Of a stretch of DNA of 32,000 nucleotides, positions 2,887 to 19,039 are shown one piece after another. This stretch comes from Prochlorococcus marinus subsp. pastoris str. CCMP1986 (GTDB lineage Bacteria > Cyanobacteriota > Cyanobacteriia > PCC-6307 > Cyanobiaceae). The stretch covers positions 120,001 to 152,000 of the forward strand of contig NC_005072.1 of assembly GCF_000011465.1 (NCBI RefSeq), written 5' to 3'. The translations under genes and the position numbers were made by a program. The notes beneath the pieces were generated by a model. That model was not told the DNA's origin. It saw nothing but the letters and a program-made list of their open reading frames with translations, and searched no databases. Positions within the stretch are counted from its first letter, which is position 1, and each line of letters opens with the position of its first letter.

Positions 2887-2895
2887 TTTATATGT

Positions 2896-2967
<72 letters not shown>

Positions 2968-2995
2968 TTCCTTTTCATAAACGTTATCGTGTCAT

Positions 2996-3019
2996 AAGAC
3001 CCCATAAGGGTCTTTTTTA
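2996..3019 (+). terminator. intrinsic terminator after tRNA-Asn
   Basis: AAGACCC-CATAA-GGGTCTT (7-bp stem, 2996..3014) running into TTTTTT. Confidence 0.6.
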
Positions 3020-3078
3020 TTGGCATGTCTTGCAATATTGCAAAAACCATTAGATCACACACGTCCATAATAAGTCGC

Positions 3079-3113
3079 TTTTTTTATGTGTTTTGTGTTT
3101 TTTTATGTGTTTT
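3079..3113 (+). repeat. two tandem copies of the 16-mer TTTTTTTATGTGTTTT (3079..3094, 3098..3113)
   Basis: Exact copies separated by GTG. A third exact copy lies at 4361..4376, and the 20-mer TGTGTTTTTTTATGTGTTTT is shared by 3094..3113 and 4357..4376. Confidence 0.85.
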
Positions 3114-3288
3114 AGCTCTTTGTAAAAATGTGATTTTATTATTCAACTTATTTGACCATTTGTAATTGACAGTCAATCTAAAATTTAGAATAAACATCTA
3201 TTTTATATGGTGTATTCAGGTGACATTTAGAGAACGCTAGAATGATATCGAATTTCAGTTACATCAAAATTCAAAATTTTTTTCGGAC

Positions 3289-4260
3289 ATGAAAAAACTT
3301 GTATACCTTTTTCTTATATTGATGTGTTTTACCAGTGGTAATTCATACTCATGGGAAAAGGTACCTGTTCCAGACTCTGTAGATAAAAAAACAAAATCTC
3401 CTTGGAATTTTTCTGAAGACTTTGAAAATCAAGAAGAAGGAAGACTGAGAACTAACAAATTTCTCATCAACGATAAGGGGGCAGGTCTCAAACCATTTTT
3501 AATTAAGGAAGATCCTGATGGTAATAAGTATCTTGCGGTGACAGTGAAACATGGATGGAATCATGATCCTAAGAAAAAAAGAGGAGAAGAAACTGAAAGA
3601 GCAGAATTTCAGACAAGACCAAAAAGAGCTGTAGGTAAAGAAATGTGGATAAGTTTCAAAACAAGACTTCCACAGGATTTTACTCATATCGACGACAGAG
3701 TATTATTTTTTCAATTCAAAAACCAATTTGAACAAATGGGAAGGAGTCCTCTTTTAGGATTACGTTATTATAAAAATGGAAATAGATTACAAATAGGGGG
3801 AGATACCGGAGGAAATCCAAGGAAATCTATGAGTCGGGAGGAAAGGTATGTTCACCACATCGGAACAAAGTATAAAAACAAAGGGGGAAATTGGATTGTG
3901 CGTTGGGAAAAAGATAGAAGGGAAGGTAAAATCAGAGATGAAGATGATTTCAAACTCACAACGAACGAACCAGTGAGTGTAACTCCATTAGGTGAATGGA
4001 GCACATATAAGATTGGAATTTATAATACAAAGAATGATGATGGTTTTGTAAAAGTTTATAAAGATAACCAATTGATGTTTGATTATAAGGGTGTCACCTT
4101 TGATTGGCGTGGACGTTATAAAGGAAGTTATATCAGAATCGGTATCTATCGAGATTCAGGAAAACAATTTGGAATCGAATACCCCGATCAAACTATTCAC
4201 TTTGATGATTTCATTGTTGTTTCAGATGAAAAGACTTTAGATCAGATACTCAATAGGTAA
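3289..4260 (+). CDS. secreted protein, polysaccharide-lyase-like / ConA-like jelly-roll family (tentative)
   Basis: N-terminal signal peptide MKKLVYLFLILMCFTSGNSYS. Motif pattern ERAEF...GKEMWISFKTRLPQDF...VLFFQFKN...SPLLGLRY..NGNRLQIGG and C-terminal YIRIGIYRDS...IHFDDFIV resembles the Polysacc_lyase (heparin lyase I / glucuronan lyase type) family. No search run. Confidence 0.5.
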   Translation: MKKLVYLFLILMCFTSGNSYSWEKVPVPDSVDKKTKSPWNFSEDFENQEEGRLRTNKFLINDKGAGLKPFLIKEDPDGNKYLAVTVKHGWNHDPKKKRGEETERAEFQTRPKRAVGKEMWISFKTRLPQDFTHIDDRVLFFQFKNQFEQMGRSPLLGLRYYKNGNRLQIGGDTGGNPRKSMSREERYVHHIGTKYKNKGGNWIVRWEKDRREGKIRDEDDFKLTTNEPVSVTPLGEWSTYKIGIYNTKNDDGFVKVYKDNQLMFDYKGVTFDWRGRYKGSYIRIGIYRDSGKQFGIEYPDQTIHFDDFIVVSDEKTLDQILNR

Positions 4261-4356
4261 TCTGCGATCTTTTGATGAGCAGGTTCAAGTAGGTAAAATC
4301 CATTGACAAAATTGAAGTTAGAAGGAAATAGCAACATAAAAAATGACCCCATAAAA

Positions 4357-4376
4357 TGTGTTTTTTTATGTGTTTT
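4357..4376 (+). repeat. right-hand copy of the 20-mer TGTGTTTTTTTATGTGTTTT, preceded by GACCCCATAA (4345..4354)
   Basis: Identical to 3094..3113. GACCCCATAA also occurs at 2998..3007 inside the tRNA terminator hairpin. Together they bracket the cargo ORF. Confidence 0.85.
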
Positions 4377-4440
4377 CCAAGAGGGATATTTGTAATTTGG
4401 GCGACTATGCCTGTCTATGAACGCTTATGAAATATCAAAC

Positions 4441-4467
4441 CGACTTGCGCCCGGGGAGTTTATTTTC
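4441..4467 (+). repeat. displaced partial tRNA-Asn 3-prime fragment, attR-like
   Basis: Exact 13-mer at 4448..4460, degenerate upstream of that, so it cannot be a functional tRNA. Confidence 0.8.
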
Positions 4468-4485
4468 TCCTAAATAAGAGATATT

Positions 4486-4508
4486 GAGATCTTCGGGTCT
4501 CTTTTTTT
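4486..4508 (+). terminator. intrinsic terminator, probably the ancestral tRNA-Asn terminator
   Basis: GAGATC-TTCG-GGTCTC (6-bp stem with one G-U, UUCG tetraloop) followed by TTTTTTT (4502..4508). Confidence 0.6.
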
Positions 4509-4530
4509 ACGTAAAATACAACTAACTAAA

Positions 4531-4570
4531 GGGAAAAACTTTAAAAGCGCCTCATAACCTACTTTTAAAG
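4531..4570 (-). terminator. weak intrinsic terminator for the 119-aa gene
   Basis: CTTTAAAAG (4539..4547) pairs with CTTTTAAAG (4562..4570) around a 14-nt loop. On the minus strand it is followed by TTTTT (complement of 4534..4538). The stem is AU-rich, so it is weak. Confidence 0.35.
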
Positions 4571-4572
4571 AG

Positions 4573-4932
4573 TTAATCATCCCACATGTCTTGTTTATTC
4601 TGTTCGATATTATTTTTTTCAAGCAACTCTAATCTATGCTCTTTTGAATCTTCTTCAAAATTTTGTAAGTTTTCGTTGTTTGCAAATTTTTGTTGAATCT
4701 CCAAAATTATAATTTCAAATTGATCGCCATAAAATTTAGACATTTCCATCCATGCTTCCATTTCCTCCTCTTTTCCAATTGTGTCGTTTATCTGATGGCT
4801 AATTATTTCTAAAACAAATTCTTTTAACTCTTTATGGCTCATGCATTCAACTTTTTTTTGAATATAAAGTTCTTTTAGATGTTGTAACTGCTTTTTAGAT
4901 AAATCGGTGTAAGTAATAGATTTCTTTTTCAT
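4573..4932 (-). CDS. hypothetical acidic, predicted helical protein (119 aa)
   Basis: ATG ORF with 26 D/E of 119 residues by hand count, a basic N-terminus (MKKKS) and an acidic tail (QDMWDD). No recognisable motif. Confidence 0.55.
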   Translation of the reverse strand: MKKKSITYTDLSKKQLQHLKELYIQKKVECMSHKELKEFVLEIISHQINDTIGKEEEMEAWMEMSKFYGDQFEIIILEIQQKFANNENLQNFEEDSKEHRLELLEKNNIEQNKQDMWDD

Positions 4933-5357: not shown

Positions 5358-6113
5358 ATGAAAATTTCAATCCTGTTGATAGAAGATGATCGTGATATGC
5401 GTGAATTAGTATCTGGTCATCTTGAACATTCTGGTTTTGATGTTCAAAAAGCTGAAGATGGTATTAAAGGTCAAGCTTTAGCCCTTCAATACTCTCCTGA
5501 CTTAATTCTTCTAGATTTAATGTTACCTAGCGTTGATGGTTTGACATTATGCCAAAGACTGCGGAGAGATGAAAGGACTTCAAATATTCCCATATTAATG
5601 ATTACAGCTTTGGGTGGACTTAAAGATAAAGTTACTGGATTTAATTCAGGTGCTGATGATTACATCACAAAACCATTTGATTTAGAGGAATTATACGTTC
5701 GTATCAAAGCTTTATTGAGAAGAACTAATAGAGCACAATTGAATTCAACTAACCAACAAGAAATTTTAAATTATGGACCTCTTACTCTTGTTCCGGAAAG
5801 GTTTGAAGCTATTTGGTTTGAATCTGCCGTGAGACTTACCCATTTAGAATTTGAGCTACTTCACTGTTTGATGCAAAGACATGGTCAAACAGTCTCTCCA
5901 GCACTGATATTAAAGGAAGTATGGGGTTATGAACCTGACGATGATATTGAGACTATTAGAGTTCATGTAAGGCACTTAAGAACAAAATTAGAACCTGAAC
6001 CTCGCAAGCCAAAATATATAAAAACTGTTTATGGAGCGGGATATTGCCTTGAGTTACCTGCGGTAGCTCAGGTTGATAATGGTATGCAAGAGTTTGCTGA
6101 ATCTACAAATTAA
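5358..6113 (+). CDS. rpaA: OmpR-family response regulator RpaA (circadian output regulator)
   Basis: Receiver domain LLIEDD...[10 protein letters not shown]...ITALG...[10 protein letters not shown]. The stretch [13 protein letters not shown]...[14 protein letters not shown] matches my memory of cyanobacterial RpaA. Winged-helix C-terminus [13 protein letters not shown]...GAGYCL. Confidence 0.9.
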
Positions 6114-6142
6114 AACTTAATCAAATGAGTAATTAAGTAACT

Positions 6143-7102
6143 TTACAAATCTTCAATTGCTATTTTTAATAAAGTTACTTCCCATGCTAGTCGTGGTTGT
6201 ATAAAACCTTTAAGATGTACCTTCAAATCTTCTAGTTTTTTGACGATGTTTTTGTTTCTAGTTTTTGCCCAACATTTTTGTTGTACAAAATTTATTAAAA
6301 ACATTTGTTGATCAATATCTAGTTCTTCAGATATTAATTTTGTTATTTTTAGTATTTCTAAATTATCACTTAATGGAAAGTCCAAGTTTTCTTTAATTGC
6401 ATTTGGTAATTGGTTCCAAATTTTTATATCTTTCAGTATTTTTCCTGGAGAGCCATTTGCTGAATTAATAAAATACTCTAAATCTATTTCTTTATAAATA
6501 TCAAAAACTGTAGAATCTAAATTATTTCTTATGAAAATCTCAAGCTGTTTATATGAAAAAGCTTTAAATCTTATAAGTTGACATCTTGAGATAATAGTAT
6601 CCAAAAGTAAGTTTAACCTAGAAGTTAAAAGAATAAATATACCGTTAGAGGGCTCTTCTAGTGTTTTTAAAAGACAATTAGATGCTGCTTCATTCATAAG
6701 GTGAGCATCATCAATTAATACAATTTTTCCACCTGATTCAATGGATTTTTGACCTAGAAAAGTCTTTAAATTTCTAATTTGCTCTATTCTTATTGTTTCT
6801 TTATTATTTTTTGTAGTTTCAGCTTCTGAACGATTTATAAGATTACCTTTAAAAAAATAGGTAGGCTCAATTAATAAGAAATCAGGGTGGTTTTTATCTA
6901 TGATTTTTTTTTCAATGTTTGAATTAGATGAATATTTATTAAAAATTTCCATAATAAATTTCATAGCGGTTTGTTTTTTCCCTATACCTTCCGGACCATA
7001 AAATATATAACCGTTGGAAAATGCTTTACTCTTAAGTATGCTTTCTAGATTTTCATTAACTTCCTGATTAATTAAAAGATTCTCAGTTTTAAGATCAATC
7101 AT
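6143..7102 (-). CDS. holB: DNA polymerase III delta-prime subunit
   Basis: AAA+ P-loop GPEGIGKK, Walker B-like [14 protein letters not shown], and the clamp-loader SRC motif (ISRCQLIRF). Overlaps tmk by 8 nt. Confidence 0.85.
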
Positions 7103-17553: not shown

Positions 17554-17805
17554 TTAAATAGGTAACTCTAAACCTGGCCTACATTTAGACCACTTACCAG
17601 ATTCTTCTGAAAAACTTGAACAAGATTGTACATCCCAGTCAATTTTAGAATCGCCATTTAAATCTTTGATTATACTTACGTGAATGTAAGGTTTTATTGG
17701 TTTAAAATTAGGAATATCACAAATATGCTCAACACCATGATTTTTTTCGACATCATGATAGGTCATACATCTATCAACTAATTTACAGTTAATGCAAATG
17801 CACAT
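17554..17805 (-). CDS. ycf34: Ycf34 (small iron-sulfur protein)
   Basis: The MCICINCKLVDRCMTYHDVEKNHG cysteine pattern is typical of Ycf34. I take the ATG at 17805 rather than the TTG at 17811. Confidence 0.85.
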   Translation of the reverse strand: MCICINCKLVDRCMTYHDVEKNHGVEHICDIPNFKPIKPYIHVSIIKDLNGDSKIDWDVQSCSSFSEESGKWSKCRPGLELPI

Positions 17806-19039
17806 AATCAAGAAAGAAGATCTTAAAAATCATATTTTCATTGATCATACACTAATAATTAATGAAATAGAAAGAAGTATAAAATCTTATAATTGGGATT
17901 TTATTTTATCTTCTTTACCTTCTGGATCTTTTTTAGTAGGTGGATATATAAGAGATTTAATTTTAGGAAGATTAAATTCTGTAATTGATGTTGATATTTT
18001 AGTTCCAAAAAATGCAATTAATGTTGGTAAGAAAATTGCAGATAAATTTGAAGGTAAATTTATTATTCTTGATGAGGCAAGAGATGTAGTAAGAATTATT
18101 TTTAAACATATCTCAATTGATATCGCTTCTCAAATTTCTCCTTCTATTGATATTGATTTATTAAGTCGAGATTTTTCTATTAATGCTATTGCTTTTTCTT
18201 TTGAAGAAAAACTTCTCATTGATCCATCAAATGGAATTAAAGATCTACAACTTGCTTTTTTGAGAACTAATTCAAAGCAGAACTTATTGGATGATCCATT
18301 AAGAATCTTAAGATGCTTTCGTTTTATTTCTGAATTAGATTTTAATGTTGATGTAACTTTAATAGATTTTATTAAAACTTATAAAAATCAATTAAGACTT
18401 GTTGCTAATGAAAGAATTAATTATGAAATACAGCGAATAATAAGGGGGGGGAAAGCATCGCAGGCGATAATCTTAATAAATAAATTTAAAATTTTTGATT
18501 ATATACAGTCAGAAAAAAATTTGATATTTCTTGATTTAGAAAAAATTAATTTTGAAGAATTTAATAAATTTGAAAAGGAAAAATTTTTACCATTATTTTA
18601 TCTTGTTCAAATTTTAGACGAATTTTCTTTGAAAAATTTAAAATTTAGCAAATCTGAAATTTCAAAAATTAGGCTATTAAGAAAATGGAATCTTTTATTG
18701 AAGGTGCAAAATATTTATGAATTTAATGAGAAAGAAAGATTTGATTTACATCAGGAATTAGAAACTATTCTTCCATCTTTTATTCTTTTTTTGCCAAAAT
18801 CATTTTATGTAAATTGGCTCGCTAGATGGCGAGATAAAGATGATAAATTATTTCATCCGTCGAATTTAATAAAAGGGAACGTTTTAAAAAAATATTTAAA
18901 AATCCAAGATGGACCTATTTTAGGAAAGGTCATTAATTATCTTTCTATGGAGCTTGCATATAATAGATTGAATAATTTTGATGAAGCTATATATAAAGGA
19001 AAGCAATGGATTCAACAAAATGCGCCAAAATGTGATTAA
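17792..19039 (+). CDS. tRNA nucleotidyltransferase / poly(A) polymerase family (CCA-adding enzyme)
   Basis: Head-domain motifs GGYIRDLILGR...DVDILV and SRDFSINA, then LLDDPLRILRCFRF. Confidence 0.8.
   Translation: MQMHIIKKEDLKNHIFIDHTLIINEIERSIKSYNWDFILSSLPSGSFLVGGYIRDLILGRLNSVIDVDILVPKNAINVGKKIADKFEGKFIILDEARDVVRIIFKHISIDIASQISPSIDIDLLSRDFSINAIAFSFEEKLLIDPSNGIKDLQLAFLRTNSKQNLLDDPLRILRCFRFISELDFNVDVTLIDFIKTYKNQLRLVANERINYEIQRIIRGGKASQAIILINKFKIFDYIQSEKNLIFLDLEKINFEEFNKFEKEKFLPLFYLVQILDEFSLKNLKFSKSEISKIRLLRKWNLLLKVQNIYEFNEKERFDLHQELETILPSFILFLPKSFYVNWLARWRDKDDKLFHPSNLIKGNVLKKYLKIQDGPILGKVINYLSMELAYNRLNNFDEAIYKGKQWIQQNAPKCD

Follow-up and report, generated by a model that had tools for sequence, protein, structure and literature searches.

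The window analysed here, a stretch of 32,000 nucleotides (nt) from Prochlorococcus marinus subsp. pastoris str. CCMP1986 (contig NC_005072.1, positions 120,001 to 152,000), displayed at 3289-4260 on the forward strand an ATG-initiated open reading frame (ORF) for a protein of 323 amino acids (aa), with the same coordinates in the ORF list as in the original prediction made from the letters of this DNA. The ORF was enclosed in an element of 1.5 kb (2969-4467) located between the 3' end of a transfer RNA (tRNA) gene, tRNA-Asn, and a partial copy of that end. The two direct repeats shared a 12-nt identical core, and a 15-mer of the repeat was encountered twice in the window against 0.03 expected occurrences. 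A second motif, GTTTTTTTATGTGTTTT, was found three times in the window, always within the ends of the element, for an expected 0.07. The 323-aa gene was the only ORF between the repeats with homologue support, in agreement with its proposed role as sole payload of an insertion. It very probably encodes an exported protein with the fold of Pfam family PF14099 (Polysacc_lyase) that is carried as cargo by a tRNA-Asn cassette, and this protein is most likely a beta-elimination lyase for a uronate-containing glycan.

The motifs from which membership of PF14099 had been proposed were all located in the protein: ERAEF (residues 103-107), GKEMWISFKTRLPQDF (116-131), VLFFQFKN (138-145), SPLLGLRY (153-160), NGNRLQIGG (163-171), YIRIGIYRD (281-289) and IHFDDFIV (303-310). 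The assignment was upheld by the hidden Markov model of this family, which belongs to the ConA-like clan: residues 77-306 matched profile positions 30-207 of 210 with 73.1 bits (E 3.8e-20), above the gathering cut-off of 29.9 bits. The AlphaFold2 model, built from a 47-sequence alignment, was almost wholly beta-strand and displayed a mean predicted local distance difference test (pLDDT) score of 90.2 and a predicted template modelling score (pTM) of 0.88. It was poorly defined only at the N-terminal 21 residues, which formed an unpacked low-confidence helix with pLDDT < 50 at residues 11-21. Foldseek ranked the polysaccharide lyase (PL) family 20 glucuronan lyase 2ZZJ first (E 4.5e-12, template modelling score 0.68), followed by the PL36 alginate lyase Aly36B (E 3.6e-8), calreticulin lectin domains and PL13 heparinase I. 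Further ConA-like proteins, from PL7, PL14 and the glycoside hydrolase (GH) families GH16 and GH131, came lower; the Foldseek probability was 1.00 for 2ZZJ, 6KCW and 3IKW. Model and structural matches thus bore out the anticipated jelly-roll fold of the heparin lyase I or glucuronan lyase type. A profile of 58 close and distant relatives also retrieved 2ZZJ (E 1.5e-12) and heparin lyase I (E 3e-3) from the PDB. Identity to PL20 of ~15 % and an E-value of 3e-3 to PL13 suggest that the protein falls outside both families as CAZy delimits them.

The mature protein comprised 302 aa (35.7 kDa, isoelectric point 9.3), and its least conserved part was residues 181-230. The charged stretch pointed out earlier, KNKGGNWIVRWEKDRREGKIRDEDD, is indeed present within this part (residues 196-220); it is unusual only in being the most variable segment of the family. 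In the AlphaFold2 model, strands 190-198 and 201-208 of the variable region formed a hairpin that led into a loop, and in the profile alignment the region occupied the site of the large insertion of heparinase I.

Three pairs of motifs were brought into register by the profile alignment. Residues Q142-F-K144 were paired with A-Q-W-H of heparinase I and with Q91-F-I of 2ZZJ, G285-I-Y287-R with F-G-I-Y-R of heparinase I and with G-L-Y200 of 2ZZJ, and E103-R104-A-E with G-R-A-E-F of heparinase I; chain-index offsets of the profile-to-PDB alignment agreed with heparinase I numbering. The heparinase I motifs aligned here carry the active-site residues Arg83, Gln149, His151 and Tyr357, reportedly described by Han et al. 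in 2009. The homologous residue set in BxHep-I consists of Arg88, His156, Lys358 and Tyr362 (PMC10097318). Among the 58 relatives, which reached down to ~20 % identity, Y287 was invariant, Q142 was displayed by 57, K144 and R288 by 56 each and R104 by 53 (Lys in the rest); R104 was found in all 47 close relatives. The Tyr of the G-x-Y strand, the Gln of the Q-x-(H/K) strand and the Arg of the ERxE strand, all typical of jelly-roll lyases, were thus present. The His that PL7 and PL13 enzymes display two residues past the Gln was not, Lys144 being found in its place. From this alignment, the family appears to keep a lyase-type catalytic set in which Lys replaces the PL7/PL13 His. The replacement would argue against membership of PL13 or PL7 and not against lyase chemistry, because Lys-based catalysis has a precedent in PL36: substrate complexes of Aly36B were trapped with K143A/Y185A, a Lys/Tyr parallel for K144/Y287 that is drawn from PDB titles only. 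Glu106 was replaced by Ile in 7 of the 47 close homologues; together with those that display Glu at position 142, they may constitute a co-varying subgroup with altered active-site chemistry.

The N-terminus consisted of a charged n-region (MKK), an 11-residue hydrophobic core (LVYLFLILMCF) and a c-region (TSGNSYS), with a predicted cut between SYS and WEKV. These features, which include the positive charge, the hydrophobic core and small residues at positions -3 and -1, were judged by inspection. In homologues the signal segment diverged in sequence while the pattern and the small-x-small site (SYS, LYA, TFA, TYS, LNA) were kept, and an invariant WEKVPVPD followed. Cys13 was neither part of a lipobox nor conserved. 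The Sec-type signal peptide recognized at the outset was confirmed by this pattern and its conservation across homologues. Cyanobacterial Sec signals deliver proteins to the periplasm or the thylakoid lumen, and the conserved pattern supports predicted export across the plasma (or thylakoid) membrane, not release outside the cell.

A search of ~5.8 billion proteins gathered 164 homologues at E <= 1e-3, the best being 90 % identical (E 5e-196). PF14099 was carried by 120 out of 120 homologues among the matches listed (of 164), and with this support 3289-4260 can be considered a real, conserved gene. In the species genomes of GTDB, 57 homologous loci were detected, 55 of them in single-cell or metagenome-assembled Prochlorococcus genomes and two in Pelagibacteraceae. 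Only one (L056, two tblastn pieces) looked disrupted. A betaproteobacterial relative (Betaproteobacteria bacterium LSUCC0117) was 52 % identical and annotated as 'heparin lyase I family protein'. HMMER retrieved 319 proteins at E <= 1e-3 from 1.84 billion cluster representatives, only 34 of them at E <= 1e-30, which indicates that the lyase subfamily is small; according to cluster look-ups, its members are almost all unnamed marine metagenome sequences. No description of this lyase family in Prochlorococcus was found in literature searches. The gene had a GC content of 34.7 % versus 32.0 % in the window, and base composition gave no sign of a distant donor. Phage origin was rejected, as there was no tblastn match in 50,697 phage records, no IMG/VR relative and no PHROG match; membership of a defence system was also rejected, the lyase protein having no PADLOC match.

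The flanking core genes (dnaJ-like, cysK-like, UPF0367 and an ABC ATPase) were 83-98 % identical in strain MIT 9515 and three single-cell genomes, and the presumed Prochlorococcus host was recovered from flanking core proteins 85 % identical to those of P. marinus MIT 9515. DNA homology to four relatives (L060-L063) stopped at window positions 2968-2984, which is the end of tRNA-Asn. Other genes were encountered past this point in the relatives: many small ORFs in one genome and sugar-nucleotide enzymes in others. The closest relative (97 % DNA identity) had only one gene there, for a TPR/2OG-Fe(II) oxygenase (L061:4903-6225), and a partial copy of tRNA-Asn came after it. None of the 57 homologous loci was syntenic with the window, so that the gene had correctly been regarded as cargo and not as core. 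The lyase cassette is a strain-variable accessory trait.

The outer parts of the element (2969-3137 and 4296-4467) matched eight marine metagenome contigs by BLAST; a search of metagenomes for the 20-mer end motif had gathered 105 contigs, mostly by chance and from unrelated environments, of which these eight were related by BLAST. In four of them (L168, L159, L081 and L087) the right end directly abutted a gene for a 116-aa excisionase-like protein (HTH_17; phrog_66), itself followed by a 415-aa integrase gene. The integrase of L168 (L168:2595-4192, reverse strand, with the excisionase-like gene) matched PHROG_1 (E 1.7e-18) and had no Pfam or PDB match. These integrase and excisionase-like genes against a shared right end define a putative autonomous tRNA-Asn element. 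Beside them were an ORF of 231 aa and smaller ones, without family match. L159 and L081 continued past the right attachment site (attR) into the window's own chromosomal flank (4468-4534). The left-end module was likewise found before unrelated cargo, namely a lipoprotein-like 132-aa ORF (L123:1811-2209), a 175-aa ORF with a signal-peptide-like N-terminus (L137:313-840) and a UvrD/ResIII helicase-like 765-aa ORF (L147:301-2598). The single-gene cassette of L061 had only the tRNA-end repeat in common with the window element, not the left end. Together, the single-gene units at the tRNA-Asn site appear to resemble a cassette system at a tRNA. As the window element has no tyrosine recombinase of its own and related elements with the same right end carry one, it would represent a non-autonomous derivative and not a full element. 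Judged from its ends, it probably derives from a tRNA-Asn-specific integrative element, either as a non-autonomous form or by deletion, and carries the lyase module as its only cargo. A 415-aa ORF at window positions 17792-19039 was discarded as integrase candidate, since it is a core gene of the CCA-adding/poly(A) polymerase family.

Lyase homologues were also located downstream of two other tRNA genes: 242 nt past tRNA-Ser(GCT) in seven loci and ~400-440 nt past tRNA-Ser(CGA) in five, three further loci being array-internal (sites seen in L006-L015 and L048-L051). These cassettes were closed by an 11-12-nt copy of their own tRNA 3' end at a fixed distance, either +254 or +418 nt. The leader preceding the lyase gene in the window and the 34-nt flank following it were 92-97 % identical to their counterparts in tRNA-Ser(CGA) cassettes, for proteins only 66-72 % identical. 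Regulatory constraint or a role as recombination anchors may account for these conserved flanks. Along the lyase coding sequence, identity switched from one homologue to another, which indicates recombination. One lyase module thus appears to circulate at three tRNA sites in Prochlorococcus, tRNA-Asn, tRNA-Ser(GCT) and tRNA-Ser(CGA). At one tRNA-Ser(GCT) site, the unit after the lyase cassette contained a predicted arylsulfotransferase (ASST; L010:7516-8871).

Coordinates of all features are given in Table 1. The leader was rejected as a structured RNA or riboswitch, with no Rfam match except the tRNA and a folding z-score of 0.06; no strong sigma-70 match was scored in it. The hairpin beyond the right repeat probably served as tRNA-Asn terminator before the insertion moved it away from the gene. 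The first gene past this repeat (4573-4932, reverse strand) encodes a 119-aa acidic protein of family DUF7326 (E 9.8e-17), and is followed by a 425-nt AT-rich spacer (~25 % GC) and a response-regulator gene.

Table 1. Features of the lyase cassette and its borders in the window (UTR, untranslated region; attL, left attachment site; SPase I, signal peptidase I)
Feature	Position	Strand	Basis
Intact tRNA-Asn(GTT) gene; 3' end is the attachment site (attL side)	2895-2968	+	ARAGORN; Rfam tRNA, 67.5 bits
Left direct-repeat copy, tRNA 3' end, identical core GCCCGGGGAGTT	2950-2976	+	Repeat family D3; 15-mer search
Left-end module	2969-3137	+	75-94 % identical to left ends of L168, L123, L147, L137 and L140 (tRNA-Asn-associated elements with different cargo)
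Terminator-like hairpin just past the tRNA, inside left end	2996-3014		Terminator scan
GTTTTTTTATGTGTTTT, two copies in left end	3078-3094, 3097-3113		Motif search
Conserved 123-nt leader, probable promoter and 5' UTR, starts TTGACA	3166-3288	+	92-96 % identical to tRNA-Ser(CGA)-class cassettes
Signal peptide (MKKLVYLFLILMCFTSGNSYS, residues 1-21); predicted SPase I cleavage between S21 and W22	3289-3351	+	Conserved pattern
Mature PF14099 jelly-roll domain including stop codon, 302 aa	3352-4260	+	Pfam, AlphaFold2, Foldseek, profile alignment
Candidate catalytic codons R104, Q142, K144, Y287	3598-3600, 3712-3714, 3718-3720, 4147-4149	+	Alignment, conservation
Variable charged hairpin and loop, residues 196-220	3874-3948	+	Conservation, AlphaFold2
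34-nt 3' flank moving with the lyase module	4261-4294	+	97 % identical in eight tRNA-Ser(CGA)-class loci
Right-end module	4296-4440	+	89-94 % identical to L168, L159, L081 and L087
Third GTTTTTTTATGTGTTTT copy, in right end	4360-4376		Motif search
Right direct-repeat copy, partial tRNA-Asn 3' end (attR side)	4441-4467	+	Repeat D3; ends metagenomic elements likewise
Terminator-like hairpin in chromosomal flank	4486-4501	+	Terminator scan

The genomic surroundings of the homologues were diverse. The closest genomic homologue (78 % identical) displayed no tRNA-end repeats nearby; a gene for the alkaline phosphatase PhoX was located ~1.7 kb upstream of it and an EVE-domain gene after it (L001:2798-4294 and 6001-6966). 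A second paralogue of ~343 aa, 59-60 % identical, was widespread in Prochlorococcus single-cell genomes (~35 loci: L018, L020-L047 and L052). Where its neighbours were scanned (L043:5932-7050; upstream gene also in L036), it was situated between an Amidohydro_2 gene and a HAD hydrolase gene with no tRNA nearby. Several genomes harbored both paralogues. In one of the Pelagibacteraceae (L053), a pyrroloquinoline quinone (PQQ)-type glucose/sorbosone dehydrogenase (GSDH) gene was found upstream of the homologue, which ended beside a predicted permuted transfer-messenger RNA (tmRNA) gene (L053:6941-7251, reverse strand) and overlapped that prediction. Genes for tmRNA are classical integration sites. 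A polysaccharide-utilisation neighbourhood was rejected for the Prochlorococcus and Pelagibacteraceae homologues, the neighbours (PhoX, EVE, Amidohydro_2, HAD, arylsulfotransferase, GSDH and ThyX) being unrelated.

The following explanation is proposed. SPase I would cleave between S21 and W22 and the protein would reach the periplasm, and thence perhaps the cell surface or vesicles. A uronic-acid-containing glycan would be bound in the concave cleft, where Arg104 and Gln142 would neutralise the C5 carboxylate; Lys144, at the position of the heparinase I His, and Tyr287 would then carry out beta-elimination and leave a 4,5-unsaturated uronate end. The variable charged hairpin (residues ~181-230) may tune substrate binding. 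As for the element, it would keep both end modules of a tRNA-Asn-specific integrative family, in which integrase and excisionase-like genes are present in some members; with both ends kept, it could be mobilised by functions supplied in trans, or it may have arisen by deletion. For the whole explanation, an exported PF14099 lyase as sole cargo of an integrase-free tRNA-Asn element, we estimate a probability of about 0.6. Taken separately, lyase activity appears probable from the conserved residues, and a glucuronan-like substrate is put forward by analogy as a tentative suggestion.

Several observations weigh against this explanation. Neither integrase nor excisionase was found among the ORFs between the repeats, and no integrase among the annotated neighbours, which makes present mobility hypothetical. 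Where heparinase I has its His, the present protein has Lys and 2ZZJ has Ile, so that the exact catalytic chemistry is uncertain, and 8 of the 47 close homologues displayed Glu at position 142. Searches of PDB sequences with the single sequence and with a profile of the close family returned nothing useful, 2ZZJ and heparinase I being reached only by the broader profile of 58 relatives, and the NCBIfam scan of the protein gave no match. Uronate-catabolism or uptake genes were not consistently present near the homologues examined. Literature searches uncovered no characterised close relative, and the sources name the relatives 'hypothetical' or, after Pfam, 'heparin lyase I family'.

The main rival supposes that the ConA-like fold serves a non-catalytic glycan-binding protein, a lectin or adhesin for surface or particle polysaccharide. 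The Foldseek matches to calreticulin lectin domains, Emp47p and botulinum-toxin receptor-binding domains (E 1e-6 to 1e-8) are compatible with such a role, as are the basic mature protein (isoelectric point 9.3) and the failure to find catabolic partner genes near the homologues examined. Sequence profiles, however, matched only lyases (PL20 and PL13) and no lectins, and conservation of 91-100 % at the Arg/Gln/His/Tyr-equivalent positions down to ~20 % identity would be hard to explain in a pure binder; a lectin is considered unlikely, though not negligibly so. The same residues bear on the idea of a glycoside hydrolase or transglycosylase of this fold, GH16- or GH131-like and acting on neutral beta-glucans. 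GH16 laminarinases and GH131 glucanases did appear among the Foldseek matches (E ~1e-6 to 3e-7), but they ranked below the lyases, no sequence profile matched any GH, Pfam matched the lyase family only, and the conserved residues were Arg, Gln, Lys and Tyr instead of an acidic catalytic pair. This possibility is regarded as very improbable.

Concerning the element, the cassette could also be what decay has left of a larger element, an inert scar whose gene is drifting or being lost and is neither mobile nor selected. Its lack of integrase and excisionase would fit, and degenerated elements with partial tRNAs accumulating in islands are described in the tycheposon preprint (10.1101/2020.12.28.424599). 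Against decay stand the intact ORF, whose exact protein sequence was present in 192 index blocks of public assemblies, the conserved catalytic-type residues, and end modules that were both 89-94 % identical to those of integrase-bearing elements. Many genomes moreover contain the same module at two other tRNAs, where it forms separate cassettes of constant length, and its mosaic coding sequence points to ongoing recombination. An inert scar therefore seems improbable, and the integrase-free element with an exported lyase as cargo is retained.

Among known systems, 2ZZJ shares the PF14099 jelly-roll, provides both the best structural and the best profile match, and displays Gln91 and Tyr200 in alignment with Q142 and Y287. 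In contrast, identity is only ~15 %, Ile occupies the Lys144 position and His53 the Arg104 position (counted back in the alignment), and the protein described here exceeds 2ZZJ by ~65 residues and has an extra hairpin and loop (181-230). Furthermore, 2ZZJ is a secreted fungal enzyme that cleaves beta-1,4-glucuronan, whereas the present protein is from a marine cyanobacterium. Heparin lyase I of Bacteroides thetaiotaomicron (PL13; 3IKW/3ILR) belongs to the same Pfam family, with paired motifs and Sec export, and both proteins display an insertion between the Q-x-H/K strand and the next sheet. However, the match is weak (E 3e-3), Lys stands for the catalytic His, the insertion is of ~50 residues compared to the ~100-residue 'thumb' domain, and nothing points to a heparin-like substrate in the open ocean. 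Aly36B (6KCW/6KCV/6KZK) is also a jelly-roll lyase and the second-best structural match, but no sequence-level match to it was detected and it belongs to a different Pfam and CAZy family.

The element can be compared with the cis-mobilisable elements (CIMEs) of Streptococcus thermophilus, att-flanked derivatives of integrative elements without a recombinase of their own. In both, att-side end modules are kept and recombination genes are gone, so that a cognate integrase might conceivably mobilise the element in trans; the interior here consists of one adaptive gene preceded by a conserved leader of its own, nearer to a gene cassette. Tycheposons are Prochlorococcus cargo elements at tRNA 3' ends, with partial tRNA copies, arrays and variable islands beside the tRNA (Hackl et al., bioRxiv 10.1101/2020.12.28.424599), and the tRNA-Asn elements behave alike, including versions with integrase and excisionase. 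The window element differs in its size of only 1.5 kb and its lack of an integrase, and the seven tRNA/tmRNA sites given for tycheposons in the same preprint do not include tRNA-Asn(GTT), tRNA-Ser(GCT) or tRNA-Ser(CGA). Both parts fall within known kinds: the protein joins an established family and the element, non-autonomous as it is, an established class of elements.

Three aspects stand out: an active site with Lys for His, a module spread over three tRNA sites not previously listed, and its sharing by Prochlorococcus, Pelagibacteraceae and an uncultured betaproteobacterium, the lyase gene having apparently been passed across phyla to Pelagibacteraceae. A bolder proposal, offered with considerable reserve, is that these lyases would form a Lys/Tyr-type jelly-roll family outside the characterised PL families, an accessory trait common to the most streamlined plankton of the ocean (Prochlorococcus, SAR11 relatives and an uncultured betaproteobacterium) and moved on single-gene, integrase-free cassettes that borrow the ends of tRNA-specific integrative elements at sites beyond the seven known for tycheposons, with the hypervariable hairpin reflecting diversification of substrate or of a surface exposed to phages or grazers. 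A photoautotroph would in this way be able to cleave acidic polysaccharide, be it that of its own envelope or polymer in dissolved or particle-bound form. Short integrase-free cassettes at three tRNA sites, with ends shared with integrase-bearing elements, offer a concrete example of single-gene shuffling among Prochlorococcus genomes. An exported polysaccharide lyase does not fit the common view of Prochlorococcus as a minimal photoautotroph. If active, the enzyme may help the cell to turn over acidic glycans of its own surface, and this would bear on phage adsorption, grazing and aggregation; alternatively, it may give access to acidic polysaccharide in marine dissolved or gel-like organic matter, with a bearing on mixotrophy and carbon cycling.

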